Origin: a virus
Taxonomy: Duplodnaviria > Heunggongvirae > Uroviricota > Caudoviricetes
Strand: one strand, 5' to 3'
IMG/VR virus record: IMGVR_UViG_2609459847_000005
Length of the DNA: 26,651 bases
The notes beneath the pieces are model-generated. The model was given only the letters and a program-made list of their open reading frames with translations. It ran no database searches and was not told where the DNA came from. The position numbers were made by a program, and so were the translations under genes. Below, piece after piece: positions 7,004 through 24,465 of this stretch. How positions within the stretch are numbered: the stretch's first letter is position 1; every line of letters begins with the position of its first letter.

Positions 7004-7654
7004 TCAGCGGCTGTCATTGCGCAGTCTGCGCTCCAGCTGCTGTTTGTCTTTTTTCACGCCACAGCGGGGATCGAGCTGTAACGCATGGTTGAGATGATTA
7101 AGGGCGGAAGCCGGATTACTTTCACTCAGGACAGCGCCAATCGCTTTATGCAGACGCGCCCGTGACTGGTCCGGCATATCCAGACCGTCTGTCAGCTCCA
7201 GCGTCTGCAGCAGCAGATCGACATCAAAGCCGGTAGTGGCAAGCATTGCGCTCTGCGCTGCGTCTGCCATTTCCTCTGCCAGCACGGTCTGCACGTTGCG
7301 GTTACCCAGCGGCATCACCCAGCCATGACGCAGGGCATGACGCCCGATCTCCAGCGCTCCGACATAATCTCCGGCATCAATGCGCCACAGCATCACGTAC
7401 ATCAGCACGTCATCCTGTTGAGCGCCTCCGGCAGCCAGGACACCCTCCGCCCAGGCGGCGTATTTCGGCAGCAGCTCCACCTTGATTTCCGCTTTTTTGA
7501 CCGTGGACTGAACGCCCTTGAGACGGCGGCGGTCTTCTGCCAGTTGCAGCAGCATCAGGTCATAGCCCGACGCGTGGCGAACGCTGCCGCCCTCGCGGGC
7601 GGCCTGTTCAGCCTGAACGCGCAGGCGATGCTGCCGTGCGGGACTCAGGCTCAT
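7004..7654 (-). CDS. M: Terminase small (endonuclease) subunit (P2 gpM-like)
   Basis: 216-aa ORF directly downstream of N; ATG at 7652-7654; P2 gene order O-N-M-L. Confidence 0.8.
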   Translation of the reverse strand: MSLSPARQHRLRVQAEQAAREGGSVRHASGYDLMLLQLAEDRRRLKGVQSTVKKAEIKVELLPKYAAWAEGVLAAGGAQQDDVLMYVMLWRIDAGDYVGALEIGRHALRHGWVMPLGNRNVQTVLAEEMADAAQSAMLATTGFDVDLLLQTLELTDGLDMPDQSRARLHKAIGAVLSESNPASALNHLNHALQLDPRCGVKKDKQQLERRLRNDSR

Positions 7655-7657
7655 GGT

Positions 7658-8716
7658 TTACGCTCCGGTTTCTGCTGCGGCGGCGCTGAAGTCGCCAATC
7701 TGGATGTTTTCCACCAGTGCGGCGCAGCGGTAGTCCTCAACCACATAGGCTTCGTTAACGGATTCAAAATTTTCAATCCGGTCACGTTTCGGGTTGTCGA
7801 TAACCGAACGGCGGCGGGTGTCTTCCTGCCAGTAAATGGACAGGTTATCCAGACGGGTGATCAGCAGCGCATTCGGCGGGAAGAACGGCGCACGCACGGC
7901 CTGCAGGCCACCCATGCGTTTCTGACTGATGATCATATCGGCAGCCAGTTTTTCACTGTTTTCCTGCTCTTTGTTGACCAGCGGGAAATACTTGTCAGAC
8001 AGCAGCTCACGACCGCAAATCACCACCAGATCGTCATCGTCCTGGTAGACCACGTCGATAAGCTCATTGACCGCATCCATCACCACGGCGTCCAGGTTGG
8101 CATATTCGCCACCTTTCCCGACTTTCACCGCACCCGGTGTGGTTTCACCGCCCGTGGTGGTGCTGCCCATGACGTGATCCGGTGCATCCTCACGGATTTT
8201 CTGCAGCCAGCCTTTGTTCACATCCTGCAGCAGCGGGTTTTCGCTACGGTTGGAGGTTTTCGCACGCTTCACGCCGTTAAAGCCGATCATGATGCGGTCC
8301 AGTGCCTGGCGTTTCACGATGGCGTCACGGATACGCACCTGGAAATCCTGAAACTTCGCCCACAGGTCCAGCTTCGCGTAGGTCAGCACCGTGTCAAAGT
8401 TGGTCTGTTCGCATTTGTATTCCACATCGATCATCAGCGTCGGATCGACAGGTTCACGCTCTTTCGCGGTGGTGTCAGTGGTTCCGGCAATGGTGCTGCC
8501 AACACCCAATCCAAGCAGCTGACCGGACTGCTCAGTCACTGGCGTGACGTTAATCAGCGTCAGGAAAGCGGCGGACTGCTGGATCTGGTCTTCCAGCGTC
8601 TGCTGCACAGACGGCTCTACGGTGAACTTGCTGGACAGTTCCTCAACTGCCACACCGTTCAGACGCGCCAGTTGCTGCAGGTAAGCGTTAAAAGCAAAAC
8701 GGGTATTCTTCTTCAT
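7658..8716 (-). CDS. N: Major capsid protein (P2 gpN-like)
   Basis: 352-aa ORF (P2 N about 357 aa); GGAG Shine-Dalgarno before ATG 8716; follows scaffold gene O. Confidence 0.9.
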   Translation of the reverse strand: MKKNTRFAFNAYLQQLARLNGVAVEELSSKFTVEPSVQQTLEDQIQQSAAFLTLINVTPVTEQSGQLLGLGVGSTIAGTTDTTAKEREPVDPTLMIDVEYKCEQTNFDTVLTYAKLDLWAKFQDFQVRIRDAIVKRQALDRIMIGFNGVKRAKTSNRSENPLLQDVNKGWLQKIREDAPDHVMGSTTTGGETTPGAVKVGKGGEYANLDAVVMDAVNELIDVVYQDDDDLVVICGRELLSDKYFPLVNKEQENSEKLAADMIISQKRMGGLQAVRAPFFPPNALLITRLDNLSIYWQEDTRRRSVIDNPKRDRIENFESVNEAYVVEDYRCAALVENIQIGDFSAAAAETGA

Positions 8717-8732: not shown

Positions 8733-9566
8733 TCAGCAATTGGTCAGAGTGTCAGCGGGGGCGTTGCCGCCTGTTGCACGCTGGCGGTAGTCCTGGCGGC
8801 TGTCTTCATGACTCAGCTTATCCACCAGTTCGTTAAAGGCGGTTTGCTGCTCCTGCAGAGCAGTCTCCAGCTCAGACAGGCGTTCTTCCTGCTCAGACAG
8901 GGATTTTTCGGTGCGCGTGCTCAGGTTCTGCTGCTCAGTGGCGACCAGTTCCACGGCCTTATGCACATCAGAGAACCGGACGTCATCGGACTGCTCTTTT
9001 TTGGTAAACAGCGCCGTGACGCGGGCAAACAGGGACGGCTTGTCCTCCTGGATTTCTTCCAGTTCGATCACCGTTTCCTCTGCAGCGGTAAAAAGATTGG
9101 CAGGATTCTGCTTGCGGTTTGCCAGCGGGTTATGGGCTGCACTGGCGCTGAATGTCAGCATTTCCGTACCCAGACTGGCGGGATCATCAGTGGCAGCCAG
9201 GCCGACCAGGTAGGCTTTGCCCGTATCAGCAAACTTCGGGCTGACTTCCATAGAGGTGAATAATTTCTGGCCTTTTTTCACCAGTTCCACCAGGGACTCC
9301 GTTGGCTCAACGTCGGCATACAGTGCCATCTTGCCTGCCAGCGGACCTTCCGCGATTTCTTCAGCAAACAGCGCCGTCACCTTGCCGTAGCGGTTAAACG
9401 TGCTGTCCGGCAGATAAGACTTAATGTGCTCAAGGTTAATCAGCGCGGTATACACCGCCGGGTTGTAGCTGGCTGCCATCTGTTCCAGCCATTCACGCTG
9501 GATTTCGCGTCCGTCGGTAGTGGCACCTTCCACCCCGATGCGAAAACGCTTTGCTTTCACTGTCAT
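8733..9566 (-). CDS. O: Capsid scaffolding protein (P2 gpO-like)
   Basis: 277-aa ORF (P2 O 284 aa), divergent from P; acidic coiled-coil-rich C-terminal half typical of scaffolds. Confidence 0.85.
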   Translation of the reverse strand: MTVKAKRFRIGVEGATTDGREIQREWLEQMAASYNPAVYTALINLEHIKSYLPDSTFNRYGKVTALFAEEIAEGPLAGKMALYADVEPTESLVELVKKGQKLFTSMEVSPKFADTGKAYLVGLAATDDPASLGTEMLTFSASAAHNPLANRKQNPANLFTAAEETVIELEEIQEDKPSLFARVTALFTKKEQSDDVRFSDVHKAVELVATEQQNLSTRTEKSLSEQEERLSELETALQEQQTAFNELVDKLSHEDSRQDYRQRATGGNAPADTLTNC

Positions 9567-9708: not shown

Positions 9709-11475
9709 ATGAACACCACACTGACACCCGCAGATCTCGATCCCCGTCGGCAGGCCATGCTGCTGTACTTTCAGGGATACCGCGTAGCCCGCATTGCTGA
9801 AATGCTGGGCGAGAAAGTTGCAACCGTTCACAGCTGGAAAAAACGCGACAAGTGGGGTGACTATGGGCCGCTGGATCAGATGCAGCTCACCACCGCCGCC
9901 CGCTACTGCCAGCTCATTATGAAGGAGCACAAAGAAGGGAAAGATTTCAAAGAAATTGACCTGCTGGCGCGCCAGTCGGAGCGCCACGCGCGGATCGGCA
10001 AGTTTAACAATGGCGGCAACGAAGCCGACTTAAACCCTAACGTCGCCAACCGCAACAAAGGGCCGCGCCGTCAGCCGGAAAAGAATGTTTTCACCGATGA
10101 ACAGATTGAGAAGCTGGAAGAAATCTTCCATTCCTCCATGTTCAACTACCAGCGCCACTGGTGGGAAGCCGGAAAAACCAATCGCATCCGCAACCTGCTG
10201 AAGTCTCGCCAGATCGGCGCGACCTTTTACTTTGCCCGTGAAGCCCTGATTGACGCCCTGCTGACCGGACGTAACCAGATTTTCCTTTCCGCCAGTAAGG
10301 CACAGGCCCACGTCTTTAAGCAGTACATCATCGACTTCGCCAAAGAAGTGGATGTGGAACTGAAAGGCGATCCGATGGTGCTTCCTAACGGGGCCACGCT
10401 TTACTTCCTCGGCACCAATGCCCGCACGGCCCAGAGTTACCACGGCAACCTGTATCTGGATGAATATTTCTGGATACCGAAATTCCAGGAGCTGCGCAAA
10501 GTGGCTTCCGGTATGGCTATTCACAAAAAATGGCGACAAACCTATTTTTCCACGCCATCCAGCCTGACACACAGTGCTTATCCGTTCTGGTCCGGTGCGC
10601 TGTTCAACCGAGGGCGCAACAAAGCCGATAAGGTGGACATCGACCTGTCCCACAGCAATCTGGCCCCCGGCCTGCTGTGCGCAGACGGGCAGTACCGCCA
10701 GATAGTCACCGTGGAAGATGCGGTGCGCGGCGGCTGTAACCTGTTCGACCTTGACCAGTTGCGCATGGAGTACAGCCCGGACGAATACCAGAACCTGCTG
10801 ATGTGCGAGTTCGTGGACGATCTCGCGTCCGTGTTCCCGCTCAGCGAGCTGCAGGCGTGCATGGTGGACAGTTGGGAAGTCTGGACCGACTTTCATGCAC
10901 TGGCCCTGCGCCCGTTTGGCTGGCGCGAAGTGTGGATCGGATATGACCCGGCGAAAGGTACGCAGAACGGCGACAGCGCCGGATGCGTGGTGGTGGCGCC
11001 GCCAGCCGTGCCGGGCGGTAAGTTCCGCATTCTTGAGCGTCACCAGTGGCGCGGAATGGACTTCCGCGCCCAGGCTGACGCCATCAAAAAACTGACCGAA
11101 CAGTACAACGTGACCTATATCGGTATCGACTCAACCGGCGTTGGTCACGGGGTTTACGAGAACGTGAAAGCGTTTTTTCCTGCCGTCCGGGAGTTTGTCT
11201 ACAACCCCAACGTTAAAAACGCCCTGGTACTCAAGGCCTACGACATTATCAGCCACCGCCGTCTGGAGTTTGACGCCGGACACACCGACATAGCGCAGTC
11301 CTTTATGGCAATCCGTCGCGCCACCACCGCCAGTGGCAACCGCCCGACCTATGAAGCCAGCCGCAGCGAAGAAGCCAGCCACGCCGATCTGGCCTGGGCA
11401 ACGATGCACGCACTGTTTAACGAACCGCTGCAGGGCGAATCCGCCAATACCAGCAATATTGTGGAGATTTTTTGA
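9709..11475 (+). CDS. P: Terminase large (ATPase) subunit (P2 gpP-like)
   Basis: 588-aa ORF (P2 P 590 aa); divergent from O; stop overlaps the Q start. Confidence 0.9.
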   Translation: MNTTLTPADLDPRRQAMLLYFQGYRVARIAEMLGEKVATVHSWKKRDKWGDYGPLDQMQLTTAARYCQLIMKEHKEGKDFKEIDLLARQSERHARIGKFNNGGNEADLNPNVANRNKGPRRQPEKNVFTDEQIEKLEEIFHSSMFNYQRHWWEAGKTNRIRNLLKSRQIGATFYFAREALIDALLTGRNQIFLSASKAQAHVFKQYIIDFAKEVDVELKGDPMVLPNGATLYFLGTNARTAQSYHGNLYLDEYFWIPKFQELRKVASGMAIHKKWRQTYFSTPSSLTHSAYPFWSGALFNRGRNKADKVDIDLSHSNLAPGLLCADGQYRQIVTVEDAVRGGCNLFDLDQLRMEYSPDEYQNLLMCEFVDDLASVFPLSELQACMVDSWEVWTDFHALALRPFGWREVWIGYDPAKGTQNGDSAGCVVVAPPAVPGGKFRILERHQWRGMDFRAQADAIKKLTEQYNVTYIGIDSTGVGHGVYENVKAFFPAVREFVYNPNVKNALVLKAYDIISHRRLEFDAGHTDIAQSFMAIRRATTASGNRPTYEASRSEEASHADLAWATMHALFNEPLQGESANTSNIVEIF

Positions 11476-12509
11476 TGGGAAAGAGTAAGAAGAACCGCGC
11501 TGCGGCGACGAAACAGATCCAGCTTAAAAGTCAAACTACAGCCGAAGCATTCAGCTTCGGCGATCCCGTTCCTGTTCTGGACCGCCGAGAACTGCTGGAT
11601 TATGTGGAATGCGTACAGATGGACCGCTGGTATGAGCCGCCCGTCAGCTTTGACGGACTGGCGCGCACCTTCCGCGCTGCCGTGCATCATAGTTCCCCGA
11701 TTGCAGTAAAGTGCAACATTCTGACCAGCACCTACATCCCTCACCCGCTGCTCAGCCAGCAGGCTTTTTCGCGTTTTGTGCAGGACTATCTGGTTTTTGG
11801 TAACGCCTACCTGGAGAAACGCACGAACCGCTTCGGTGAAGTTATCGCCCTTGAGCCTGCACTGGCAAAATACACCCGACGCGGGTTAGACCTGGATACC
11901 TACTGGTTTGTGCAATACGGTATGACAACCCAGCCGTATCAGTTCACGAAAGGCAGCATTTTTCATCTGATGGAACCGGATATTAATCAGGAGATCTACG
12001 GCCTGCCCGGTTATCTTTCTGCCATTCCGTCAGCCCTGCTCAACGAGTCCGCCACGCTGTTCCGTCGCAAGTATTACATTAACGGCAGTCATGCGGGCTT
12101 TATCATGTACATGACCGATGCCGCGCAAAACCAGGAGGATGTGAACAACCTCCGCAATGCGATGAAAAGCGCCAAAGGTCCAGGCAACTTCCGCAACCTG
12201 TTTATGTACTCGCCTAACGGCAAAAAAGACGGGCTTCAGATCATCCCATTGTCAGAAGTCGCGGCGAAGGATGAGTTTTTGAATATCAAAAATGTCAGCC
12301 GCGACGACATGATGGCTGCGCACCGCGTGCCGCCGCAAATGATGGGGATTATGCCTAATAATGTTGGAGGGTTTGGGGATGTGGAGAAGGCTAGTCGCGT
12401 ATTTGTACGTAATGAATTAACGCCCTTGCAAAAAAGGCTACAAGAGCTGAACGACTGGCTGGGCGAAGAAGTGATTAAATTTACGCCCTATATTCTTTCA
12501 GAAGAATAA
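11475..12509 (+). CDS. Q: Portal protein (P2 gpQ-like)
   Basis: ORF 11472..12509; first track codon is TTG, second is ATG at 11475, overlapping the P stop (TGATG); 344 aa, matching P2 Q. Confidence 0.9.
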   Translation: MGKSKKNRAAATKQIQLKSQTTAEAFSFGDPVPVLDRRELLDYVECVQMDRWYEPPVSFDGLARTFRAAVHHSSPIAVKCNILTSTYIPHPLLSQQAFSRFVQDYLVFGNAYLEKRTNRFGEVIALEPALAKYTRRGLDLDTYWFVQYGMTTQPYQFTKGSIFHLMEPDINQEIYGLPGYLSAIPSALLNESATLFRRKYYINGSHAGFIMYMTDAAQNQEDVNNLRNAMKSAKGPGNFRNLFMYSPNGKKDGLQIIPLSEVAAKDEFLNIKNVSRDDMMAAHRVPPQMMGIMPNNVGGFGDVEKASRVFVRNELTPLQKRLQELNDWLGEEVIKFTPYILSEE

Positions 12510-12517
12510 TTCCGAAC

Positions 12518-13216
12518 TTATTTGTTTCTTCTTTGTTCACGCCTTGTCTTGGCTTCGATAAGGCGTTGAGGTTCAGTGTAAAGCCGTTCTAAAAAAAGAT
12601 AGGTAAAATCTTCAAGATCCTCAGCAGCAGCTTTATCCAAAATACCTTCATGCGCTCCATCATTTCCGTCATCTTTAACGCATTCAGCTAGTTCCCTTAA
12701 AGCTTCAGGCAGTAGATGATTATCAAATAACCACTCCATTCTTAACCCTAGGCTTCTCCTTATTTTTTGCGCAGGCCCTTGCTCCCCATCAGGAAGAAGT
12801 CCTTTTGTGGCATAATCAAGGCAAAGCCTAAACATGGTTGCTGCTGCATTATAACAACCTATAGCCAAACATTTCGCCCCTTCCTCATATGCACTATTGA
12901 TATGCTCAGGTAAGAACTCTGGTGGCTCCTCTACTGCTAAGTCTGCCGGTGATATAGGCCTAACAACCTCTGCAACTTCCTTTAAGCCGAATATTCCACT
13001 TTCCCAATTATAGCCATCTAAAGTTTTATTTTTCGTTAAAGGTCTGCAAAGAAACATTGTCGTTTTATGACACTCTCGGCAAACACAATAGACCTCGTAC
13101 TCGTATGTTTTACCCCCGCCCAATGCATTGTAAACCCTAGTGCAATTCAGCCCATTAACATCAAACGCTATTTTTTGTGATCCACATCGTGGACAGTCAT
13201 CCACTAACATAACCAT
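12518..13216 (-). CDS. Hypothetical protein (232 aa): N-terminal zinc ribbon plus C-terminal alpha-helical domain (HEPN/DUF4145-like?)
   Basis: Strong GGGAGGAG Shine-Dalgarno before ATG 13216. N-terminus has CPRCGS...C..CVCRECH (Cys4-type ribbon); C-terminal region has GNDGAH (an NxxxH motif) in a predicted helical domain. AT-rich; sits between the Q 3' end and the putative cos site. Confidence 0.75.
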   Translation of the reverse strand: MVMLVDDCPRCGSQKIAFDVNGLNCTRVYNALGGGKTYEYEVYCVCRECHKTTMFLCRPLTKNKTLDGYNWESGIFGLKEVAEVVRPISPADLAVEEPPEFLPEHINSAYEEGAKCLAIGCYNAAATMFRLCLDYATKGLLPDGEQGPAQKIRRSLGLRMEWLFDNHLLPEALRELAECVKDDGNDGAHEGILDKAAAEDLEDFTYLFLERLYTEPQRLIEAKTRREQRRNK

Positions 13217-13317
13217 GTCAATTACTCCTCCCTATGAAAAAAATGAGTTGAAAAATTGAATATTCACGACTTAAAAAGCTAGCCTATTTAACACCATAAT
13301 TTCATTAATTCAACCAT

Positions 13318-13345
13318 GAGCGCGCGCTCGTATCCCCGCCACGCC
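13318..13345. other. Candidate cos site with adjacent 12-bp perfect palindrome
   Basis: Reverse complement of 13327..13345 is GGCGTGGCGGGGATACGAG; the first 13 nt match the 186-type cohesive end as I recall it (GGCGTGGCGGGGAAAGCAT). Palindrome GAGCGCGCGCTC at 13318..13329. Location between Q and the old/tin-equivalent region fits P2-family genome organisation. Confidence 0.5.
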
Positions 13346-13390
13346 TGCCCGCTTTATGTAGTGGTTTTCATGCGCCTGCATGACATAAGC

Positions 13391-13414
13391 AAAAGCCCGC
13401 CATTCCTAGCGGGC
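13391..13414 (-). terminator. Rho-independent terminator candidate for the minus-strand cargo operon
   Basis: Minus strand reads GCCCGC-taggaatg-GCGGGC followed by TTTT; about 90 nt downstream of the 203-aa gene stop. Confidence 0.55.
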
Positions 13415-13505
13415 CTCAGCTAAAACGATCCTCAAACGATCATGCGGATTCATGCGGCATAGACATGCACAATCGCCAAAGCGGGCATCGAGACTTTTTG
13501 GAAAA

Positions 13506-14117
13506 CTACGTAACCACAGTTAATGTGTGCATCCTGTCTCGAATTGCATCACACGTCTCATCAAAAAGCTTGGTGATGGTTGTACGGTTCAACTCTGCCT
13601 CTTTCCAATAATTTTGCCAGTCAAATTCTGGATCGCCATGCTGAAACGATATTGACTCTGAAAGGCATTCCTTCCGGAAACGGTCCAAGATTATATAAAC
13701 CTCTGGTGAGATGAACGGTTTGTTAGACTCAACACTTGTAACAAAAGTATTAAATGCATCGAAAAAAACTTTCAACCTTCTAAATTTTCTCTCTTCAAAT
13801 GGTTCGTTGGGGTCAAAATGATCCAGCGCAGGCCTCAGCTTAAGCACGCTTTCTCTGGTTTCAAACATCGAATTCCAAATGAGACTATATGCTGATAACT
13901 CCTTATCAAAATACGCTTTCGTTACATAAACAGAATTGTCTAACTTAGCCTTTATTCTTTCATTAGTTGCACTCAGTTGTGATTGAAATTCAGCAATATC
14001 TTTGTTTAGCCGCGACTTATATCTTTCTAAATAAACTTTCCCGATCCAAACAAATATGCCAGATGCAACAAAAGACACCCCACCCAACGAAGCCAGAATT
14101 TTAAAGACTAAATCCAT
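13506..14117 (-). CDS. Hypothetical membrane-anchored protein (203 aa)
   Basis: ATG 14117 preceded by AGGTGGGGG; N-terminal TM helix (ILASLGGVSFVASGIFVWIGKVY) followed by a charged, helix-rich soluble domain; AT-rich; no recognisable domain. Confidence 0.75.
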   Translation of the reverse strand: MDLVFKILASLGGVSFVASGIFVWIGKVYLERYKSRLNKDIAEFQSQLSATNERIKAKLDNSVYVTKAYFDKELSAYSLIWNSMFETRESVLKLRPALDHFDPNEPFEERKFRRLKVFFDAFNTFVTSVESNKPFISPEVYIILDRFRKECLSESISFQHGDPEFDWQNYWKEAELNRTTITKLFDETCDAIRDRMHTLTVVT

Positions 14118-14165
14118 TGCGCCCCCACCTGCAAAAATAGTATTCCATTATAAGCTAATACATTT

Positions 14166-14426
14166 TTAATCAAACAGGGAATAATTCGCGTCAACCTCAT
14201 CACTTCTCTGCTCTACCCTGGTGACTTCCATCAAAAACTCCAGGCCGTCATATAGCGAAACGGGGAATTCCAGCTCAAGCCAGAAGCAGTCTTCATAGGT
14301 GCGGCCCAACCAAAAACCTCCGCCACACTCCTTTGGGCGTTGAAAGAAGACCCAGCCGCCAGGGGTAAACCGTTCCAGCACCTGGCCCCGATAAATAATC
14401 TGGTGATTACTGTCTTTTTTACCCAT
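14166..14426 (-). CDS. Hypothetical small protein (86 aa)
   Basis: ORF 14166..14477 starts at TTG; internal ATG at 14426 (MGKKDSNHQIIYRGQ...) preferred. Lies between the DinI-like gene and the TM protein gene. Coding status moderately supported. Confidence 0.5.
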   Translation of the reverse strand: MGKKDSNHQIIYRGQVLERFTPGGWVFFQRPKECGGGFWLGRTYEDCFWLELEFPVSLYDGLEFLMEVTRVEQRSDEVDANYSLFD

Positions 14427-14499
14427 GGCTAACGCCTCGCTACTCTCGTTGTTCAACCTTGCTGACGTCAGAATCAAGTTCTTACATCAGGAACGTTCC

Positions 14500-14733
14500 T
14501 TAGTGCAGCCAGCTGTCGTCTTCCCAAACCTGCTGCATAATTTCCATCACCCGCTTTTTGTCTTCATCAAGCTTTAAGCCACTCAGCTCAACGCCGTTTG
14601 CCGACCCTTTACGGATGCGGATAGCTGTCTTGGGATAGATGGGTTGCAGGTTGCGGTAAAGCTCGGACTCCAGAGCGTCCAGGGTAGACTGGCTAATCTT
14701 CTGCTCTTTATCGATCATTATTTCAATGCGCAT
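14500..14733 (-). CDS. DinI-family protein (Tum-like antirepressor C-terminal module)
   Basis: Start moved to internal ATG 14733 with GAGGTG Shine-Dalgarno; MRIEIMIDKEQKISQSTLDALESELYRNLQPIYPKTAIRIRKGSANGVELSGLKLDEDKKRVMEIMQQVWEDDSW resembles E. coli DinI (MRIEVTIAK...ETWESADDWF). It is downstream of LexA boxes, as for the 186 tum gene. Confidence 0.8.
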   Translation of the reverse strand: MRIEIMIDKEQKISQSTLDALESELYRNLQPIYPKTAIRIRKGSANGVELSGLKLDEDKKRVMEIMQQVWEDDSWLH

Positions 14734-14743
14734 AAAAGTCACC

Positions 14744-14932
14744 TCAGCTGATGACATCCATTGAGCGGTTGTATTCGTGGGTTCTGATTTTTGCCATGAG
14801 TTCATCTGTCAGTTCAGAAACCCACTGCAGGGCCAGCCCCTTCTCTTCATCACTACACTCACTAGCCGCTACAAGCTTAAGAAAAAAATCAATGCGCTGG
14901 AGCTTCAAAGACTCCAAAAAATAGTCCTGCAT
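14744..14932 (-). CDS. Small protein (62 aa) upstream of the DinI-like gene; possible N-terminal part of a split tum-like module
   Basis: ATG 14932 with AGGAGGAA Shine-Dalgarno; first gene downstream of the LexA-box promoter; 11-nt gap to the DinI-like gene. Confidence 0.65.
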   Translation of the reverse strand: MQDYFLESLKLQRIDFFLKLVAASECSDEEKGLALQWVSELTDELMAKIRTHEYNRSMDVIS

Positions 14933-14959
14933 CTTTCCTCCTATGACACCAAAGCAACA

Positions 14960-14990
14960 CTGTATACATAACCACTGTTTATATTTACAG
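14960..14990 (-). promoter_or_regulatory. LexA operators (SOS boxes) overlapping the promoter of the tum-like operon
   Basis: CTGTTTATATTTACAG at 14975..14990 is a perfect CTGT-N8-ACAG box; the adjacent CTGTATACATAACCAC (14960..14975) is a weaker second box; both are just upstream of the 62-aa gene start. Confidence 0.75.
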
Positions 14991-15084
14991 TATATAATAA
15001 TCTTACTGATGTAAAACGTTTTTTTACGCTCATCAGCCTGATATGCCTGGTATTATTAAGAGCACGAATTGTTAACCTGCGTAA

Positions 15085-17499
15085 TTAATACAGGTTCCGC
15101 CATTTATCATCCTCCTGCAGACGCTGGTTCCGATAGAAGATACGCAGGCCTGCTCCTGACGGAATACTGCCGCCGCGAAGGAGTAAATCGACCTCTTTCT
15201 CGCTGCCATCAAATCCTCTGGACTTCAGTTCATAGACGAGCTGCTGTCGCTGATGATCTGTAATTCGCTGTTTGTAGTCTTTACGCCGTTTCGGTTTAAC
15301 CAGGCGTAACCTTGCTGCCAGTTCCCGGCGCTCTTTTTTGCTCATACTGTGCAGGTAATCGTGCAATTCCTTGTCATCCATGCGGGTGATTTCCGTTCTG
15401 GTATCCCCATCAGCTGATTTGTCTTTCCCTTGTTGGTTCAAATTTTCAGCAAGGGGACAGTTATTGCCACGAGTCCAAGGGGCGCAAGCGCCCTGGTCGG
15501 CTGCCGCCTCCTGAACGTCAACGGCTTTACGAACCATTTTCCACTTCACTGCATGAGTGCAGATCTTGCCCTCTGCAATGGGTGACCAGATGCCATAAAT
15601 ACGAATGCCGTGATCGCCATAGGCGGTCGGCTCTTCGTTGATTTCATAAGCGGTTCTGATGAGGTGATATTTACGGGGAACCAGTACGCCGCCCTGCTTC
15701 ATGATGTAGGTGGCAAAACAACCAGCATCAGCAGCAGCCAGAATGGCATCAAGACGCGGGTTATCCAGTACCGGCGCACCTACTTTTTTGTCACCCTGTT
15801 GCCTTGCCGCCTGACCAGCCAGCAAGCGAAGTTCACGGTAAGCCTGACGCCCCGGAATACCAAAGAAGCGGAATTGCTGAACACGATGCAGAGACGCCCA
15901 GGCATTCACGTATTCAGCGTTATCACGCAGAGATTTACCCGTTTCCTTGCTGATCTCGCCAGCCAGACCACGACCGTCAATGTTCTTACTGATATATTTC
16001 GCGATGTAGCTTGTCGGCGTTCCTTTGCGCGGGTTAATCAACTCAGACTTAAAGCGCGGCCCAGTGTTATTGCCCAGCTCCTCGCGGTCTTCACGGGTGG
16101 CAAACTTACGCAGTAATGCAGTGATGGCACGGCGGTCTTTTTTGCGCATGAAACACAACAGGTGCCAGTGAACGGGGCCGTCATGATGCGGCTCAGCCCC
16201 CCGCACGCCATACCAGCGCAACCCGGCTTTGTGCATCGCCTTACGAAATGCAGCAAACATGCCGACCAGATAATCGCTGCTTTGTCTTACCGTCGCGTTT
16301 GTCCAGGTCGGGTTTGGTCTGCCGTTATTTAGCGTGGAATGGAAACGCGACGGACAGGTGATAGTGTAGAAAACGGCGCAGTCACCGCGCATTTCCGCGA
16401 TAAGCTCCAGACCTTTAACACAGGCCATCATCTCATTGCGGCGATGCGCAGGGTTGCTGCTGCTGGCGTTTACCACATCCTCCATGTCCAGCGTGTCGCC
16501 GTCTTCGTTCACCAGTTCATGAGAACGGAAAAACTCCAGCGACTTACGGCGCTGCTCACGTTTATGCATCACGGCTTCATAGCTGACATAAGGAGATGCT
16601 TTTTTGCTGACCAGGCAAACAGCGCGCAACTGCTCTTCCCGCCATTCGCAACGCATCTTCCATAATTTCCGATACCACCAGTCGCCGCACAACATACGCG
16701 CCAGCGAACCCGGAATGAGTTCATAGGGCACGGGTTTACGGCGGTTTCTTTTCCGACGGAGTTGCTCAAACGCAGGTGGGATGACATCCAGACGCAGGGT
16801 TTCCGCCGCCACCTTTTCCCATGTCTTGCGGATTTCTTCTGGCTTAACGTCATCGGTGGCATACAAATCGCCACAAGCTGCATCAAGGCACATGCTCATA
16901 TGCGCAGCTACCAGGGTGGACAGGCGTTTCACATGATCCTGACTCATTTCAGGCAGGATCAGCAGGCCGTCCAGCCCTTCATGGCTTGCCATAAAGCGAA
17001 AAGAAGTGGATAGCTGACTCTCGCGTACATGCTCCAGTCGTTCCAGACATGGCTTAATCGTCTCACGCAAATAGCGGGAATAAGCCTTTGGCCTGCCCAG
17101 GCTGCTGAAGTATTCAATACGTTGCATCAGCGGCTTGCTGATATGGGAAGGCTGGGCGTTGACGTCCGCCAGAATGACCATATCCGGATTAAAACGCTGC
17201 TGCTCATGCGCCAGCTTTGCCCGGCTAATGAGCTTATCCTGCTCCATTTCGCGCTGGACAGGATCACGGGATTCATTAAAGAAATAACGCTCCCAGACCT
17301 GATCACTCAGTGCCTCGCGGCGCAGTTGTTCCTGCTCGTTATCGGCAGCGTACAGAGTGATCAGGTTTGAAAGCGCAGAAACCGGCGCAACTTCTGCCGG
17401 GTCCAGATAAGGGTTAATAGCCTTTTTCGGGCTGTCCCATGAGAATGCTGCGGCGGCCTCGTTAAAGCCGCTGCAGTTGTTCATATCAGCATGGCTCAT
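15085..17499 (-). CDS. A: Replication initiation endonuclease (P2 gpA-like rolling-circle Rep)
   Basis: 804-aa ORF; HUH-type motif (PVHWHLLCF) and tyrosine-containing [12 protein letters not shown]; ATG overlaps the dam stop; P2 A is about 761 aa. Confidence 0.9.
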
Positions 17500-18353
17500 G
17501 CACGCACTCCGTACACGGCAGAACTATCCACGCCACGCGAAGGATCAAATCCCACCCAGCAGCGCGCCCCAGAAACAGCGATGATTTCTGTTGCAGATTT
17601 ACTCTCACCAGCTGCTACGCCGATGCTGCGTTTTGCCTTGATGTAGTGGTGAGTAAAATTGCGATACAGCGAACGGATCAGGGATGTGTCACTGTTAGAA
17701 ACAATGACCGGATGTCCTTCTGATGACCGATGTTCAAGAACGGATGCCAGGTGATACTGGTCATCTTCAGTGAAGCCGTCAGTGTGATAACCGGAAAACG
17801 TGCCGTCATACGGCGGATCGCAATACACCACATCCCCCGCCTTCAACATCGCCAGCGTTTCATCAAAGCTGGCGCAGATAAACGTTGCCCGCTGGGCTTT
17901 CTCTGCAAATGCGCGAATTTCTTTTTCAGGGAAATACGGATTTTTATAATTACCGTAGGGAATGTTGAAATACCCGCTCTTGTTATAGCGACATAACCCA
18001 CGGTAACCATGACGATTGAGATACAGAAAATATACCGCTTTCATGAAATCAGTAATTTCAGTGGAGTAATTAAACTCCTGCCTTATGTTGTAATAAGCCA
18101 CCTCCCTGTTTGCTTCCTCAAATAAAGCTCTGGCACGAGATATAAATGCCTCACAATCAGCAGCAACCTTTTTATAGAGGTTGATTAAATCAGGATTAAT
18201 ATCCGCAACAAGATAGCTGGGGTAATCCGTCTCCATCATCACAGCACAGGAACCCGCGAAAGGTTCAACCAGTCGCGGGCCAGCAGGAAGGTGTTTTTTC
18301 AGTTCGGACATAATGGCGGTTTTATTTCCCGCCCATTTCAGGATGGTGCTCAT
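17496..18353 (-). CDS. dam: DNA adenine methyltransferase (Dam-like, N6-MTase)
   Basis: Start moved to internal ATG 18353 ([38 protein letters not shown]...), resembling the E. coli Dam N-terminus (...FLKWAGGK...VEPFVGAGSV); DPPY catalytic motif present ([10 protein letters not shown]). Confidence 0.85.
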
Positions 18354-18577
18354 ACAGCACCTCCGTTGTAATGTTTGCCTTTCAGCTCTGCAATTTCCTG
18401 GCAGGTAATGCAAAGCTGCACACCCGGAATGGCACGGCGGCGTGCTGGCGGAATTGGCGCTTCACACTCAATGCAAAGCACGCGAGACACGCCCGGTGTT
18501 TTGGCACGGGCAGCACGGATATGGCGCTGGCGTTCTTCTTCAACGCGCTGCTGTACGAGATCCATTGCATCAGCCAT
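18350..18577 (-). CDS. TraR/DksA-family C4 zinc-finger protein
   Basis: 75-aa ORF with CIECEAPIP...CITCQ (CxxC-N17-CxxC); AGGAGA Shine-Dalgarno; common in P2/186 early operons. Confidence 0.75.
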   Translation of the reverse strand: MADAMDLVQQRVEEERQRHIRAARAKTPGVSRVLCIECEAPIPPARRRAIPGVQLCITCQEIAELKGKHYNGGAV

Positions 18578-18810
18578 TAGTGGATCTCCTGCGCTTCGTT
18601 CTGGATTGCTTCAGCAGTCACACGCAGCAGTTCTGCCGCTTCCACGTGGTTTAGCTGACGGGATGAGATATGACACGCCAGGCTATCAAGGCGAGCGGCC
18701 ATTGCTTCAGCCCTTGCCCGGCGTTCTTCCAGACGAGCCTCTGTCAGTAAAATATTAAGCCCTGCATCATCCGGTCCGGTTTTAGTCGTGAGGATTTCAA
18801 TATTACGCAT
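18577..18810 (-). CDS. Hypothetical early-operon protein (77 aa)
   Basis: ORF 18577..18816; ATG at 18810 preceded by GGAGA; position within the early (replication) operon. Confidence 0.55.
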   Translation of the reverse strand: MRNIEILTTKTGPDDAGLNILLTEARLEERRARAEAMAARLDSLACHISSRQLNHVEAAELLRVTAEAIQNEAQEIH

Positions 18811-18877
18811 AATCAATTCTCCTGAATTTAGATAAAGGGATGCTCGGCGGGTTTACGCCATTAATTTCATTAGTTGG

Positions 18878-19219
18878 TTAATTCGGCATGGTTAGCCGTC
18901 TGGGAAATAAGCTCACCACTGCACGAAAATGATTCATTGCTTTAATCAACTCCCGCTTTTCGTCAGTGGTCAGCTCATTGATGCTGATGCTATGACGTTC
19001 AGCCGGAATTTTTGCCATAAAGAATATGGCTGCCAGTGCTCGTTTATTTTGTTCGTTATTGATATCCCGTGGATCACGCATATCTTTAATAAACCGCTCA
19101 AGCTCTGACTCAATATTCAGGCCAAAAACTTTCGCCCTTAATTCCGCTATGTGATTAAGTCCATTCAGGCGTTCACCGGGGCTTAATGGAACAGTCGCCG
19201 CAGCGCCTTCAATAGCCAT
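18878..19219 (-). CDS. Hypothetical early-operon protein (113 aa)
   Basis: ATG 19219 with GGGGGAA Shine-Dalgarno; same strand and operon as cII/A. Confidence 0.6.
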   Translation of the reverse strand: MAIEGAAATVPLSPGERLNGLNHIAELRAKVFGLNIESELERFIKDMRDPRDINNEQNKRALAAIFFMAKIPAERHSISINELTTDEKRELIKAMNHFRAVVSLFPRRLTMPN

Positions 19220-19383
19220 TTGTTCCCCCGTTTTTTCGTAGATAGTTCTGCCAGCAATTCATCTTGTGAACGGCACGGATGCCAGCGTTTACCATCCTCA
19301 CCCATGATCCAGCCGTGACCGTAGTGCATTGCCGGACTTTGTTTTACCAGCAGCGATGCAAATGATGGTTCTTTCGTCAGCAT
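19183..19383 (-). CDS. Hypothetical small early protein (66 aa)
   Basis: ORF 19183..19413 begins with GTG; internal ATG 19383 preceded by GAGGTG; immediately downstream of cII (position of 186 fil). Confidence 0.5.
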   Translation of the reverse strand: MLTKEPSFASLLVKQSPAMHYGHGWIMGEDGKRWHPCRSQDELLAELSTKKRGNKWLLKALRRLFH

Positions 19384-19390
19384 AAGCACC

Positions 19391-19900
19391 TCACAGCAAA
19401 CCGAATGAAGCACCGAGACCGGTTACAGTATCAACTGCACTTGCCATCGCAGGATTAACCTGTAAACGGGCCTGCAATGAAACAGCAGCTAACGCCATCA
19501 GTCGTGTAACAGAGTTAATGCTGCTGATAGCATCACGACGACCTGCACTGGTTTTTACATCGCCAGATACCGCACCTGCAGCAACACGCCCGATCTCTGC
19601 GGTTGCACTCATGACGTAATGTGGCAGTTTCTCTTTTGCCACCTCATTAATCGGTACACATGGCAGGCAGTGAATCTGTGCCAGAAAACCGTCTACCAGC
19701 GTTGAATCTTCCGTCAGATCGGTAAGTAGCCAGATATCTGGCGCATTGAGCTGATGCGGTTGATCTGGGTTGAGTTTGTTTCGCAGAGTCTGGACATTCA
19801 TTCCTGAACGTTCTGCCAGCTTCGCCATATTGTGACGAAGTGCAAAAGCTCTACAGGCTTCATCAAAATGCGGGTGTTTGGAAATCTTATAATCAAACAT
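19391..19900 (-). CDS. cII: CII-like transcriptional activator (186 CII family)
   Basis: 169-aa ORF, identical in length to 186 CII; second gene of the lytic operon after the apl-like gene; HTH-like N-terminal region (MAKLAERSGMNVQTLRNKL). Confidence 0.75.
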   Translation of the reverse strand: MFDYKISKHPHFDEACRAFALRHNMAKLAERSGMNVQTLRNKLNPDQPHQLNAPDIWLLTDLTEDSTLVDGFLAQIHCLPCVPINEVAKEKLPHYVMSATAEIGRVAAGAVSGDVKTSAGRRDAISSINSVTRLMALAAVSLQARLQVNPAMASAVDTVTGLGASFGLL

Positions 19901-19932
19901 GCTACCCCCTTAGAAAGTTCTCATAATTGAAC

Positions 19933-20175
19933 TTACTTACCAACAATGACGCGGAAGTTGGAATGACCGAGGGATTCACGGACCTGATCGGTTTTGTACA
20001 TTAAATAACGCAGGCTTACGCGGCCTTTGTTTTTTTCTTTCTTGACCATGTATTTAGCAAGCTGACCATGATGAATTTTTTGATACACAGAGCCGCGGGA
20101 GATACCTTCCCATTCCGCGAACTCTGCAGGCGTAGCCATCTCTTTTGGTACACGAATTGAAATATCAGTGCTCAT
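19933..20175 (-). CDS. apl: Apl/Cox-like excisionase-regulator (small HTH protein)
   Basis: 80-aa ORF, first gene of the lytic operon, divergent from cI; GGGAGA Shine-Dalgarno; HTH-like segment EFAEWEGISRGSVYQKIHHGQL. Confidence 0.7.
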   Translation of the reverse strand: MSTDISIRVPKEMATPAEFAEWEGISRGSVYQKIHHGQLAKYMVKKEKNKGRVSLRYLMYKTDQVRESLGHSNFRVIVGK

Positions 20176-20294
20176 AGTGCAGTATCTCCCGATTAAGGTT
20201 TGGTTTACGTCGTTTTATCTCGTTTTACTTGATTCAATATTTGATACATCGAGATACTACGATCCAATATTTGATACGTCAACAGGATTAAAAA
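20176..20294. promoter_or_regulatory. Lysis-lysogeny switch region (pR/pL and operators) between the apl-like gene and cI
   Basis: Direct repeats CAATATTTGATAC at 20235..20247 and 20265..20277 (30-bp phasing), and CGTTTTA at 20211..20217 and 20221..20227; divergent genes on either side. Confidence 0.55.
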
Positions 20295-20927
20295 ATGATA
20301 CAGGTAAAGGTTGGAGAGAATACAGGGGGAAGAGAGGCTATCCATAGACTAATGGCAGCCTATGATTTCAAGTCCAGACAGCAACTTTGCGATCACTTAG
20401 GCGCATCAAAAAGCACCATGGCAAACAGATACTTAAGAGATAGTTTTCCTGCAGAGTGGGTGATTCAGTGCGCCTTGGAAACAGGAGTTTCTTTACTGTG
20501 GCTAACCACCGGACAGGGGGAGCCAGGTCCAAACATTGAACCTAAAAAAAATATCAATTCCGTGAACTCCAGCAAGGTTGTACCTCTTTCTGAACTAGTA
20601 TCTCCTGAAATTGACAAGGCGACTCTCAACGGTGGTTTATTGGTCGATGCTGGAAAAGCAATCATTGATAGCAGCATACTCCCCTCAGACTCAAGCAACC
20701 TACTGCTGGTGACTACTTCTGGTGATTCTTATTTAATAGATCGCAACCAAACACCACCAGTAAATGGTATGTGGTTAGTCGATATTGACGGGATAAAAAG
20801 CATTGTTAAATTGACTCGACTTCCGGGAAACAAATTAGTAGTGCATCAGGATGATTCATCGTTTGAGTGTGGCCTAGATGACATTGAGGTAGTAGGCCGC
20901 GCACTGAAAATCATTAAGAGCCTTTGA
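20295..20927 (+). CDS. cI: CI-like immunity repressor (186 CI family)
   Basis: 210-aa ORF; N-terminal HTH region (ANRYLRDSFPAEWVIQCALETGVSLLWLTTGQG) resembles the 186 CI N-terminal domain as recalled; AGGA Shine-Dalgarno; directly precedes int. Confidence 0.8.
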   Translation: MIQVKVGENTGGREAIHRLMAAYDFKSRQQLCDHLGASKSTMANRYLRDSFPAEWVIQCALETGVSLLWLTTGQGEPGPNIEPKKNINSVNSSKVVPLSELVSPEIDKATLNGGLLVDAGKAIIDSSILPSDSSNLLLVTTSGDSYLIDRNQTPPVNGMWLVDIDGIKSIVKLTRLPGNKLVVHQDDSSFECGLDDIEVVGRALKIIKSL

Positions 20928-20928
20928 T

Positions 20929-21945
20929 ATGACCATCAGAAAACAGCCGAACGGAAAATGGTTGTGTGAGTGCTATCCCAATGGACGCAATGGTAAGCGC
21001 GTGCGTAAGCAATTTGCTACGAAAGGCGAAGCCATTGCTTTTGAAAGCTTCACAATGGAAGAAGTGAATAAAAAACCGTGGTTGGGTGAAAAGGATGATC
21101 GGCGACGCCTATCAGAATTAATTGAGCTTTGGTATTCCCTGTATGGTCAGACACTCGCAGACCCCAAGCGCCTCATGGCGAAACTTAGAATTATCTGTAA
21201 TGGTCTAGGCGACCCCATCGCCTCAGAACTGACAGCCGGTGACTTTACGAAATACCGCGAAGCACGGTTAAAAGGTGACGTTCGTAACGAAGACGGCACA
21301 CTAATGTCGCCAGTAAAACCACGCACGGTGAATCTTGAGCAACGTAACCTATCATCGGTTTTCGGCACATTGAAAAAACTAGGCCACTGGTCAGCACCAA
21401 ATCCTCTCGCCGGGCTGCCAACATTTAAAATCGCTGAGGGGGAACTGGCGTTCCTGACCTCGGAAGAAATTAAACGTCTGCTAGATGCCTGCGCTGATTC
21501 TCAAAACCCCAGTCTGCTTTTGATTGCAAAAATATGCCTGGCCACCGGCGCACGCTGGAGTGAAGCTGAAAACCTGCAGGGCCATCAGTTATCTAAATAC
21601 CGCATCACTTATACCAAGACGAAGGGTAAGAAAAACCGCACCGTGCCGATATCTCAAGATCTGTATGACGAACTCCCCAAGAACAGAGGGAAGCTATTCA
21701 CCCCGTGCAGAAAAGCCTTTGAACGAGCAGTAAAGCGAGCTGGCATCGAGCTGCCAGAGGGCCAATGCACTCACGTGCTACGTCATACATTCGCCAGCCA
21801 TTTTATGATGAATGGCGGAAACATACTGGTGCTGCGCGATATTCTGGGCCATGCCGATATAAAAATGACGATGATTTACGCCCACTTTTCGCCCGATCAC
21901 CTTGAAGATGCGGTAACTAAAAACCCTTTATGCAACTTAAGATAG
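20929..21945 (+). CDS. int: Tyrosine integrase (P2/186 Int family)
   Basis: 338-aa ORF; C-terminal catalytic region with R...HVLRHTFASHFMMNGG...LGHADIKMTMIYAH (RHR-Y tyrosine-recombinase signature); immediately follows cI. Confidence 0.9.
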   Translation: MTIRKQPNGKWLCECYPNGRNGKRVRKQFATKGEAIAFESFTMEEVNKKPWLGEKDDRRRLSELIELWYSLYGQTLADPKRLMAKLRIICNGLGDPIASELTAGDFTKYREARLKGDVRNEDGTLMSPVKPRTVNLEQRNLSSVFGTLKKLGHWSAPNPLAGLPTFKIAEGELAFLTSEEIKRLLDACADSQNPSLLLIAKICLATGARWSEAENLQGHQLSKYRITYTKTKGKKNRTVPISQDLYDELPKNRGKLFTPCRKAFERAVKRAGIELPEGQCTHVLRHTFASHFMMNGGNILVLRDILGHADIKMTMIYAHFSPDHLEDAVTKNPLCNLR

Positions 21946-22325: not shown

Positions 22326-24059
22326 CTACTCAAGGAGATATTCTAACTCATCTTTTATCGGGATAATTTGCTCATAAAGTCGGTGATATGACTTCCCAAT
22401 TGCGCCTCTAAATTGTATTAACTTTGGTGGCTTACTACCTATATTAATAATATGGTCTTGAGCTATACCTGGGTAGGGATCAATAAATACAATTTCAGAT
22501 ATACCTAACTGATAAGCTTTTTTCGCACACAACTCACAGGGACTGGCAGTTGTATACAACTTCCCCCCCAGAACGCCAATACCACCATATTTTGCAAGTT
22601 GTAAAAATGCGTTTTCCTCAGCATGTAATGCACGTGTATGAACTTGATTACCTTTTTTCTCTTTATCAAGATCATTATGTATATCTTTAAAACAATAAGA
22701 TAAGTTCCTGCCTCTATAAATATCACCAGTTTTATCTATCGCCCTAAAATTTAAGAGTTTCTCATTAGCTTTAATTCTGAAAGAACTATTATTTCTCTCA
22801 TAATGACTGTACGTTTTTTCATCAAAATCGTTCATTAGGCCATCTAGAGATCTCATAGAGCAAGGAATCTGACCGTTGGCAACATCATTCCAACCAACTG
22901 ATTTTATTGAATTATCACCATCAGTTACTACAGCTCCCACCTGTCTAGATATACAGCCAGAGTTTAATTTTACCGTATACGCAACTTGCATAACCCTTTC
23001 CATTGCAGTAGGTGTTATCAGACCAGGATGCTTCATCAGTGCGATGTACCACGCTAATTGTGCTTTTAAAATATTGTCATTATCAAATTCATTTTTTGGG
23101 TTAAAAATGTGTATATCTGATAGTTCAATACATTTAGTTACATTTGGATTGGTGAGATGTTTGTAAGAGTTATCACCTTTACCTGACTCTACAGAATCTA
23201 TTTCCTCTATCTGCTTTTCTGAAAACTTATGTAGTTTCCGCAAATAGTTTGTTCGATGTTCATCTGGGGCATTTATTGACATTAAATGAAATGCAGAATA
23301 TCTATCCTTAAAAAATTTTGCCTCATATGGATTTCTAATAGCATCTATGACAATTAATGCGTTATCTCTTTTGCTTTTTCTTATTAATTTAATAACCCTA
23401 TTAATAGTTTCCGGCAAATGAAAAACAGATTTAGGCATAAACTCTTTATCTTCAAAATCGACTTCAATACGCCCACGACGTCTAATTGACTTACCTGCTA
23501 ACTGATAGGCTGAAACATATAAATTTGAGTTTATCTCATTTAGTTCAGCTTTGAATTCTTTAGTAAATTTTCTAACTAACTTCAAAATTGATATAAATTT
23601 ATTAATCGTTTTTTCATCAAACTTCAATTCACTATTATGATCAAGCAAATTCTCAATTACATTTTTAAATCTTGTCAAAATGAGATTATCTGAGAATACA
23701 CCAAAAGTTAATACAATATCTAAATGCTCTTTACTGATAAATTTATTAGATGATAGAATGAATTCAGAAGCTTCCTCAACTGTTAACATCAGAAGATACG
23801 CTGAGATTAGGTCACTCACCTTAATTGAGTAAAAATTTTCCCAGTGATTTTCTGCGAATTTTTTAACTATATTATAACGATGGACATCCAATCCCTTGTA
23901 AAACCCCTGTAATTTACTTACATCAGGGAAGACTGTTTTTTCGTTTTCAAGAATATTAGCTGTTGTTGTGCAACCAGAACCAGTTCGACCTGTCAAACCG
24001 ACTAAAATAAACTGCCCATTTTCAAGGAAAAGCTCACTAACGAATTTTTTTTCTTTCAT
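22326..24059 (-). CDS. P-loop NTPase / dCMP-dCTP deaminase fusion (AvcD/DCD-like nucleotide-depletion defence protein)
   Basis: 577 aa from ATG 24059 (track ORF starts at GTG 24062). N-terminal P-loop region with non-canonical Walker A (GLTGRTGSGCTT, no Lys) and Walker-B-like LIVID. C-terminal cytidine/dCMP deaminase signatures (RQVGAVV...GWN; HAEENA; PCELC zinc-binding motifs). Strongly AT-rich relative to the phage backbone. Confidence 0.8.
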   Translation of the reverse strand: MKEKKFVSELFLENGQFILVGLTGRTGSGCTTTANILENEKTVFPDVSKLQGFYKGLDVHRYNIVKKFAENHWENFYSIKVSDLISAYLLMLTVEEASEFILSSNKFISKEHLDIVLTFGVFSDNLILTRFKNVIENLLDHNSELKFDEKTINKFISILKLVRKFTKEFKAELNEINSNLYVSAYQLAGKSIRRRGRIEVDFEDKEFMPKSVFHLPETINRVIKLIRKSKRDNALIVIDAIRNPYEAKFFKDRYSAFHLMSINAPDEHRTNYLRKLHKFSEKQIEEIDSVESGKGDNSYKHLTNPNVTKCIELSDIHIFNPKNEFDNDNILKAQLAWYIALMKHPGLITPTAMERVMQVAYTVKLNSGCISRQVGAVVTDGDNSIKSVGWNDVANGQIPCSMRSLDGLMNDFDEKTYSHYERNNSSFRIKANEKLLNFRAIDKTGDIYRGRNLSYCFKDIHNDLDKEKKGNQVHTRALHAEENAFLQLAKYGGIGVLGGKLYTTASPCELCAKKAYQLGISEIVFIDPYPGIAQDHIINIGSKPPKLIQFRGAIGKSYHRLYEQIIPIKDELEYLLE

Positions 24060-24254
24060 CACGTCCCACTTATGAATGCAAGAACAATTAGCATATTAAT
24101 TATAATTTATTAACTAATTTTATTCTAGATGCTTGATGTAATGGCGGCACTTTGGCGGCAGAGCATTAAAAACGCGTAAGACGAGCAAATACAAAATAAC
24201 ACTAACACATTGTTTTCAAACATAATCTACTGTTTTTACTATAATAAAAATGGT

Positions 24255-24299: not shown

Positions 24300-24334
24300 A
24301 TTTTTGATATATTGAAGTTCAGTGAAGTCTATCA

Positions 24335-24367
24335 AGCCCGCATGGAACCAGCCTTGCGGGCTTTTTT
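24335..24367 (+). terminator. Rho-independent terminator downstream of the ssrA 3' fragment
   Basis: AGCCCGCA-tggaaccagcct-TGCGGGCT followed by TTTTTT. Confidence 0.6.
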
Positions 24368-24465
24368 ACGTCTATAGTAGTCTACCGAGAATTGCTAGAA
24401 TCTACTCGTTATGGCACCCTTTTTGGGACCCAACACAAAGGGTCCAAAACATGAGGGTCCCAAAC

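Follow-up and report, generated by a model that had tools for sequence, protein, structure and literature searches.

A probable P2-family cos site forming a conserved island between two variable cargo loci of an Escherichia coli prophage

The DNA analysed here, a window of 26,651 nucleotides from the IMG/VR virus record IMGVR_UViG_2609459847_000005, was recognised by Pfam identification of its genes as a P2-family prophage in E. coli. The gpM-like small terminase subunit is encoded on the minus strand at 7004-7654 (Phage_term_smal, E = 4.9e-40; 49% identical to P2 gpM), as are the gpN capsid (7658-8716) and gpO scaffold (8733-9566) proteins. The plus strand codes for a gpP-like large terminase subunit at 9709-11475 (Terminase_5, Terminase_6N and Terminase_6C; 64% identical to P2 gpP) and for a gpQ-like portal at 11472-12509 (Phage_portal). 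Further on, Pfam placed minus-strand genes for DinI (14500-14805), the gpA replication protein (15085-17499) and a Dam methylase (17496-18413), and plus-strand genes for a CI repressor (20295-20927) and an integrase (20929-21945). The P2-type gpM, gpP, gpQ, gpO, gpN and gpA genes are all intact. The segment of main interest, 13320-13374, lies between Q on the plus strand and DinI and gpA on the minus strand. This is the gene order of P2 and 186, and it agrees with the initial annotation, which had expected a cos site between Q and the right-end accessory region.

Genes of the cargo type adjoin this segment on both sides. Towards Q, the minus strand encodes a 232-aa DUF4145 protein (12518..13216, by Pfam) with a weak PADLOC match to PD-T7-4 (E = 1.2e-6). 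Its match to phrog_1305 ('DNA binding protein') is strong, and, judged from its sequence, it may be the product of an anti-phage gene. Q (ending at 12509) and the DUF4145 gene (ending at 12518) are convergent and 8 bp apart, a gap that leaves no room for a separate terminator like P2 tQ. On the replication-gene side, the minus strand carries cargo ORFs of 203 aa (13506..14117; phrog_26391) and 103 aa (14166-14477; phrog_2100), both of phrogs of unknown function and neither with a match in Pfam or PADLOC. The segment 11000-17000 of the window was compared by BLAST with 120 loci from the IMG/VR scan described below, and 110 of these showed any similarity. Among the 110 relatives, Q is shared by up to 82 loci, the cos island by up to about 71 and the DinI/gpA region by about 30, while the stretch with the DUF4145 gene (12510-13318) is shared by at most one locus and that of the 203-aa ORF (13500-14150) by none. 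Similarity thus drops to almost nothing on either side of 13319-13470, and cos stands as a conserved island between two variable loci. That cos is bordered by cargo loci, as the initial annotation had proposed, is therefore borne out. The separation of two cargo loci by cos is established and already published for P2-like phages: a variable gpA-gpQ hotspot adjoining cos has been reported in PMC9122126 (Rousset et al. 2022) and PMC13586616, and PMC5694545 credits Dodd and Egan 1996 and Nakayama 1999 with the site between cosL and Q.

Cargo also occurs at the far side of the prophage. A 578-aa anti-phage dCTP deaminase is encoded at 22326-24062 on the minus strand, in the space from the integrase to about 24300, where the prophage probably ends (PADLOC 'dCTPase', E = 1.3e-145; Pfam dCMP_cyt_deam_1; RefSeq homologues named 'anti-phage dCTP deaminase'). 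The region from integrase to att has been described as a minor hotspot (PMC13586616), and the related phage Cartapus, considered below, has a RES-domain gene at this position instead. Just outside the prophage end lie a second tyrosine integrase (24322-25695, plus strand; Arm-DNA-bind_3, Phage_int_M and Phage_integrase) and, after it, an IS1 transposase (26085-26588, minus strand). Together they suggest another integrative element, inserted in tandem at the same attachment site.

The initial annotation had identified a putative cos by a 13-mer, GGCGTGGCGGGGA, on the minus strand at 13345-13333, as a match to the start of the cohesive ends of 186 and P2. This is its sole exact copy in the window, and the match is borne out: the 186 record (U32222) begins GGCGTGGCGGGGAAAGCAT, identical to the 13-mer at 13 of 13 positions, and the P2 record (AF063097) begins GGCGAGGCGGGGAAAGCAC, identical at 12 of 13. 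Extended to the register of the annotated 19-nt ends of these phages (P2 cosL 1-19; 186 cos 1-19), the sequence becomes GGCGTGGCGGGGATACGAG, minus strand, 13327..13345, which is the predicted 5' cohesive end. The 19-mer occurs once in the window, and none of 100 shuffled sequences contained a match with three or fewer mismatches. It is identical to the 186 end at 15 of 19 positions and to that of P2 at 14 of 19, with divergence from both at positions +13 to +19. The homology reaches well past the 13-mer on the replication-gene side. With slashes at the limits of the cohesive end, the minus strand of the window from 13480 to 13300 reads ...TTGTGCATGTCTATGCCGCATGAATCCGCATGATCGTTTGAGGATCGTTTTAGCTGAGGCCCGCTAGGAATGGCGGGCTTTTGCTTATGTCATGCAGGCGCATGAAAACCACTACATAAAGCGGGCA / GGCGTGGCGGGGATACGAG / CGCGCGCTCATGG..., and the junctions obtained by joining the right and left ends of the phage records read ...GTGCATTAAAACCGCCCCGTGAAGCGGGCG / GGCGAGGCGGGGAAAGCAC / TGCGCGC for P2, ...CTGCATTAAAACCGACCCATAAAGTGGGCA / GGCGTGGCGGGGAAAGCAT / TGCGCGC for 186 and ...CTGCATTAAAACCGCCCCGCAAAGCGGGCG / GGCGAGGCGGGGAAAGCAC / CGCGCGC for the satellite P4 (X51522). 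The window aligns with all three junctions without gaps. By this register, the predicted minus-strand nick separates 13346 from 13345, and the predicted plus-strand nick 13326 from 13327.

The surroundings of these two bonds resemble each other. The half-site GCGGGCA (13346..13352, minus strand) borders the predicted minus-strand nick on its 5' side, as its mirror GCGCGCG (13320-13326, plus strand) borders that of the plus strand; GCG[G/C]GC followed by a purine is found 5' of each nick also in P2, 186, P4 and the family consensus. The two nick sites would accordingly form a two-fold symmetric pair, the second member of which coincides with the perfect 12-bp palindrome GAGCGCGCGCTC at 13318-13329. 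The palindrome had been reported in the initial annotation as an element lying next to the putative cos. It is indeed perfect and at that position, but it overlaps the cohesive end instead of merely adjoining it: its 12 bp comprise the final three bases of the cohesive end, then the conserved CGCGCGC and two bases without conservation, and the predicted plus-strand nick falls within it. What is conserved is its centre, GCGCGC, which mirrors the GCGGGC beside the other nick, whereas the outer TC, needed for the full 12-bp symmetry, differs from one relative to another. The palindrome is thus better regarded as a part of the nicking site than as a separate flanking element. Neither is it statistically unusual, an idea that was considered and discarded: palindromes of 12 bp number ten in the window, where Markov simulations give 7.4 +/- 2.8, so that the count is at chance level, and the outer bases of this one are unconserved.

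The same sequence is present in public records. Cartapus (OV696611.1 / NC_070909.1), prophage 4 of E. coli LF82, has a record that begins at the base equivalent to 13377 of the window, and its positions 1-59 (window 13377-13319) are annotated as "putative cos site, homologous to the cos of P2 phage". The window is matched without a single difference by record positions 1-178 (window 13377-13200) and 33266-33368 (window 13480-13378), an identity that supports the reading as cos and at the same time deprives it of novelty. The Cartapus annotation gives no cut positions. The window comes from another strain and is not LF82 Cartapus itself, an assignment rejected on account of differences beyond the cos region: the structural-gene side is 99.98% identical, but the gpA side only 97.4%; the immunity region (20189-20928) finds no match, the integrase is 85% identical and the cargo beside it is another. 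The drop in identity, when 13378-21945 is compared, starts at the Cartapus record start, 32 bp from the predicted nick, and fits recombination at or near cos. Over 12400-14300 the window matches the LF82 chromosome, and several further E. coli genomes, with 100% identity; its whole right part was matched by none of the complete E. coli genomes in the collection, of which NCTC9038 came closest. Strain LF82 releases encapsidated Cartapus genomes at about 3e5 per mL, the ends of which were left unmapped in that work (PMC9928086), and because the sequence differs beyond the cos region the induction of LF82 can be transferred only partly to the prophage of the window.

Two further phages share the predicted end. 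In Salmonella phage SEN8 (Felsduovirus), which has been propagated as virions (PMC5427200), the putative cos at 1-19 is the identical 19-mer and the record ends at the base homologous to 13346; like that of Cartapus, this annotation is 'putative' and homology-based. The plaque-forming Yersinia phage vB_YpM_MLG42 (Elveevirus), also propagated as virions (host in the record, Y. pestis EV76-CN), has the same cohesive end within an island 96% identical to that of the window. Besides the 19-mer, both have in common with the window the GCGCGC, the distal boxes, the GATC pair and the terminator hairpin described below; they differ in having TGCAT at -29, where the window has CGCAT, and in their flanking cargo, MLG42 having none between DinI and cos. 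A literature search found no mapped virion ends for any phage with this exact 19-mer.

For P2-family phages, published work describes 19-nt 5' ends and a "55-bp core" that packaging requires (PMC3931495, PMC5694545, PMC9594776). P2 and P4 share a block of identity that runs from TGCAT to GCGCGC and measures exactly 55 bp, and the limits of the core were set here from this block, the published size being that of the block and taken from these secondary sources. In the window the core spans 13320..13374 on the minus strand, -29 to +26 relative to the minus-strand nick. The alignment with P2 and 186 by which the initial annotation was to be judged is gapless, with identities over the core of 41/55 to P2 and 43/55 to 186, and 42/55 to P4. 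Conservation was also studied on a wider set. An IMG/VR scan with GCGGGCNGGCGNGGCGGGG yielded 120 loci, from which 119 unique 250-bp regions were analysed, the window included. Outside the positions fixed by the search (-7 to +12 in this pattern; -36 to -18 in a second one), and with the reservation that the loci are mutually related and not phylogenetically independent, conservation among the 119 sites extends from about -126 to +26, with an abrupt end on either side. [T/C]GCGCGC at +20 to +26 is nearly invariant, and from +27 onward the sequence is unconserved. BLAST matches in the phage collection have the same limits, 13319/13320 to about 13470.

The conserved stretch beyond the core contains a set of short boxes. 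The most conserved part outside the search-fixed positions is ATGCAGGCGCATGAAAAC (13364..13381, minus strand), which includes a [T/C]GCAT box starting at -29 (13374) and an inverted ATGCA from -36. Three distal [T/C]GCAT boxes on the same strand (13442..13469) start at -124 (13469), -111 (13456) and -101 (13446). All four positions are shared with 186 and P4; in P2 the boxes are at -123, -111, -101 and -29. Among the 119 loci a box is present at -124 in 80, at -111 in 94, at -101 in 99 and at -29 in 115, for a background of 0.003 per position, and 85 loci possess all four. The P4 boxes are of the TGCAT form. P4 is reported to have no other homology with P2 (PMC9594776), and the sharing of the boxes therefore points to a role in packaging through the common terminase. 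The distal boxes are candidate binding sites for the small terminase subunit gpM, a proposal made by analogy and consistent with the better transduction of cosmids with longer cos flanks (PMC9594776). Between the boxes and the hairpin, two GATCGTTT repeats (13423..13441, minus strand) lie 11 bp apart with one GATC (Dam) site each, at -96 and -85; of 51 TACGAG-type sites, 43 have a GATC at -96 and 42 have one at -85. It may be noted beside these two Dam sites that a Dam methylase gene (17496-18413, minus strand) belongs to the phage itself.

The comparison with the classical phages can be summarised as follows. With P2 and 186 the window shares 19-nt 5' ends in register, the 55-bp core, the GCGCGC after the end, the four boxes and the location of cos between the portal gene and the right-end accessory region. 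It differs from them at four to five of the 19 overhang bases and in the DUF4145 gene, both of them having no gene between cos and the portal gene. P2 is without the terminator hairpin, and 186 has an annotated terminator, t95b, upstream of the boxes. With P4 the window shares the core and the four boxes at identical positions, and P4 also has an anti-phage hotspot adjoining cos (PMC9122126); P4 lacks terminase and capsid genes, whereas the window holds a complete P2-type phage.

The remaining feature of the island is a minus-strand hairpin at 13391..13414, in which a GC-rich stem of 8 bp carries the loop GGAA and is followed by TTTT (stem 13414-13407/13402-13395; T-run 13394-13391). The RNA folds with -24.5 kcal/mol (z = -4.0), a value attained by none of 200 shuffled sequences, and the minus-strand ORFs at 13506-14117, 14166-14477, 14500-14805 and 15085-17499 all point at it. 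A stable GC-rich hairpin with a U-run, downstream of co-directional genes, has the makings of an intrinsic terminator. A simple terminator scan of the window did not call the hairpin at 13414-13391, probably because extension of the stem uses up the T-run; since the minimum-energy fold pairs the U-run with upstream bases, arms and TTTT were counted directly in the relatives. In the two largest groups of TACGAG type, 83% and 67% of the sites have TTTT after the stem, as against 0% among P2-type sites, and the arm at -60 averages 7.3 bp in the largest TACGAG group, against 3.7 bp in P2-type sites, where shuffled sequences give 3.9 bp. Counts of hairpin pairs over all classes are muddied by class differences and possible indels, and no covariation is drawn from them. 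Just after cos lies a promoter-like sequence, TTGAAT-17-TAAATA (13313-13285, minus strand); the scan, which requires a T at position 6 of the -10 element, did not call it, and no promoter is claimed here.

The best reading of the hairpin, from its sequence and distribution, would be that of a lineage-specific intrinsic terminator (Fels-2/Elveevirus-type) lodged within the cos island. The terminator of the initial annotation is in this sense real, on the minus strand at 13414-13391, though not as a general component of cos; a universal role was rejected, as the hairpin is absent from P2-type sites. It could be thought, instead, that the hairpin serves the packaging signal above all, as a structural element or by binding protein. 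Its position within the conserved island is fixed, its CCAG/CTGG bases are conserved in sequence, and of 67 loci whose inverted repeat has arms of 5 bp or more, 52 have it centred at -60. Moreover, 186 (CGCCAG-AG-CTGGCG) and P4 (CGCGCC-ATTCCC-GGCGCG) each carry an inverted repeat there that lacks a T-run, which makes a secondary structural role of the hairpin possible. As its main function, however, this is unlikely: the P2-type sites have no inverted repeat above background at that position, the stem is followed by TTTT in most members of the two largest TACGAG-type groups, every upstream gene is transcribed toward the hairpin, and the published 55-bp core leaves it out.

Other explanations concern the site as a whole or its parts, and must be weighed against a cos of ordinary function. 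The window deviates from most of its relatives at -29, where its proximal box is CGCAT (C at 13374) and 115 of the 119 in the first sample have TGCAT. If this T-to-C change were disabling, the locus could be a non-functional cos homologue, a relic in a defective prophage; the very low virion yields of Cartapus, together with the failure to find an indicator host for it or to see myovirus particles (PMC9928086), would agree with it. Nevertheless, the C variant was present in 64 usable IMG/VR loci with 54 distinct flanks on the Q side and 39 on the other, which means that it has persisted through much turnover of cargo and is hardly a private disabling mutation, an option that was rejected on these counts. 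The boxes at -111 and -101 commonly read CGCAT as well, the genes for terminase, portal and capsid are intact, and encapsidated Cartapus DNA was detected above background (PMC9928086). The C at -29 is the mark of an established minority sub-lineage and not a lesion, and a relic is highly improbable. It is likewise very improbable that the palindrome is an independent element, whether as the operator of the neighbouring cargo gene, as a site of recombination from which the hotspot arises, or as a target for restriction. Its location, exactly where conservation gives way to variable cargo, would suit such a role, but only GCGCGC and the preceding cohesive-end bases are conserved in it, palindromes of this length occur in the window at chance frequency, and P2, 186 and P4 have the GCGCGC with no 12-bp palindrome around it. 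Finally, the site might be a cos whose nicked bonds are not those of P2 and 186, giving an overhang of another length or a shifted position. The divergence of +13 to +19 from both phages could hint at this; set against it are the spacing of the GCGGGC-purine and GCGCGC-purine half-sites, the same as in P2, 186 and P4, and a terminase homologous to that of P2 in both subunits, so that different bonds are scarcely credible.

We therefore regard the locus as the cos site of a P2-family prophage, Cartapus/Elveevirus-like and close to Fels-2, in an E. coli chromosome, with a probability of about 0.9. The locus combines what distinguishes a cos of this family (Peduoviridae), namely the 19-nt end, the 55-bp core, the location and the cognate terminase and portal. 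The putative cos of the initial annotation thus gains support from its homology to the P2, 186 and P4 ends and from the identical annotated sequence of Cartapus, and is an ordinary P2-family cos, publicly annotated before and not new. Its operation can be envisaged in the following manner. Once the prophage excises and replicates, its own terminase, consisting of the gpM-like and gpP-like subunits, would recognise the cos region and introduce the two nicks 19 bp apart, at 13346/13345 on the minus strand and 13326/13327 on the plus strand, each after a GCG[G/C]GC-purine half-site, the 'GC-rich palindrome' being the half-site of the second nick. Recognition would probably also involve the phased [T/C]GCAT boxes at -29, -101, -111 and -124, all of them on the replication-gene side. 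The DNA would then be packaged through the gpQ portal, and virion DNA would carry 5' overhangs of the 19-mer and its complement. The hairpin would stop early and cargo transcription on the minus strand before it reaches the nick site.

This arrangement recalls the cos of lambda, where cosN has staggered nicks with partial two-fold symmetry and the R-sites of cosB form a one-sided array of short repeats. The likeness is a functional analogy only, in the staggered symmetric nicks and in one-sided repeats that possibly bind the small terminase subunit; the ends of lambda are 12 nt long, and neither its sequences nor its small subunit is related to those of the P2 family. On these grounds we propose, with somewhat less than even confidence, that the working packaging signal of P2-family phages and P4 is a module of about 150 bp with four phased boxes that bind gpM, cosB-like, and two symmetric half-sites. 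The literature search for cosB-type elements in P2-like phages returned nothing relevant, and the architecture of four boxes with symmetric half-sites was not found in it, although older primary work, such as Ziermann and Calendar 1990, may already describe it. The phased distal boxes shared with P4 and the symmetry of the nick sites may be mildly new points, or may be known already.

The prediction of cos at base level would give the virion genome ends of this prophage lineage, with the DUF4145 and 203-aa ORF loci directly abutting the two genome ends, and such an arrangement at genome ends has already been proposed as a driver of cargo exchange in P2-like phages and P4 satellites. The 152-bp island at 13319-13470 offers a handy annotation anchor for delimiting these cargo hotspots. 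Moreover, the presence of the boxes at the same positions in P2, 186, P4 and most of about 120 relatives suggests a packaging signal longer than the textbook 55 bp, which, if true, would bear on the design of P2/P4 cosmids and transducing particles.
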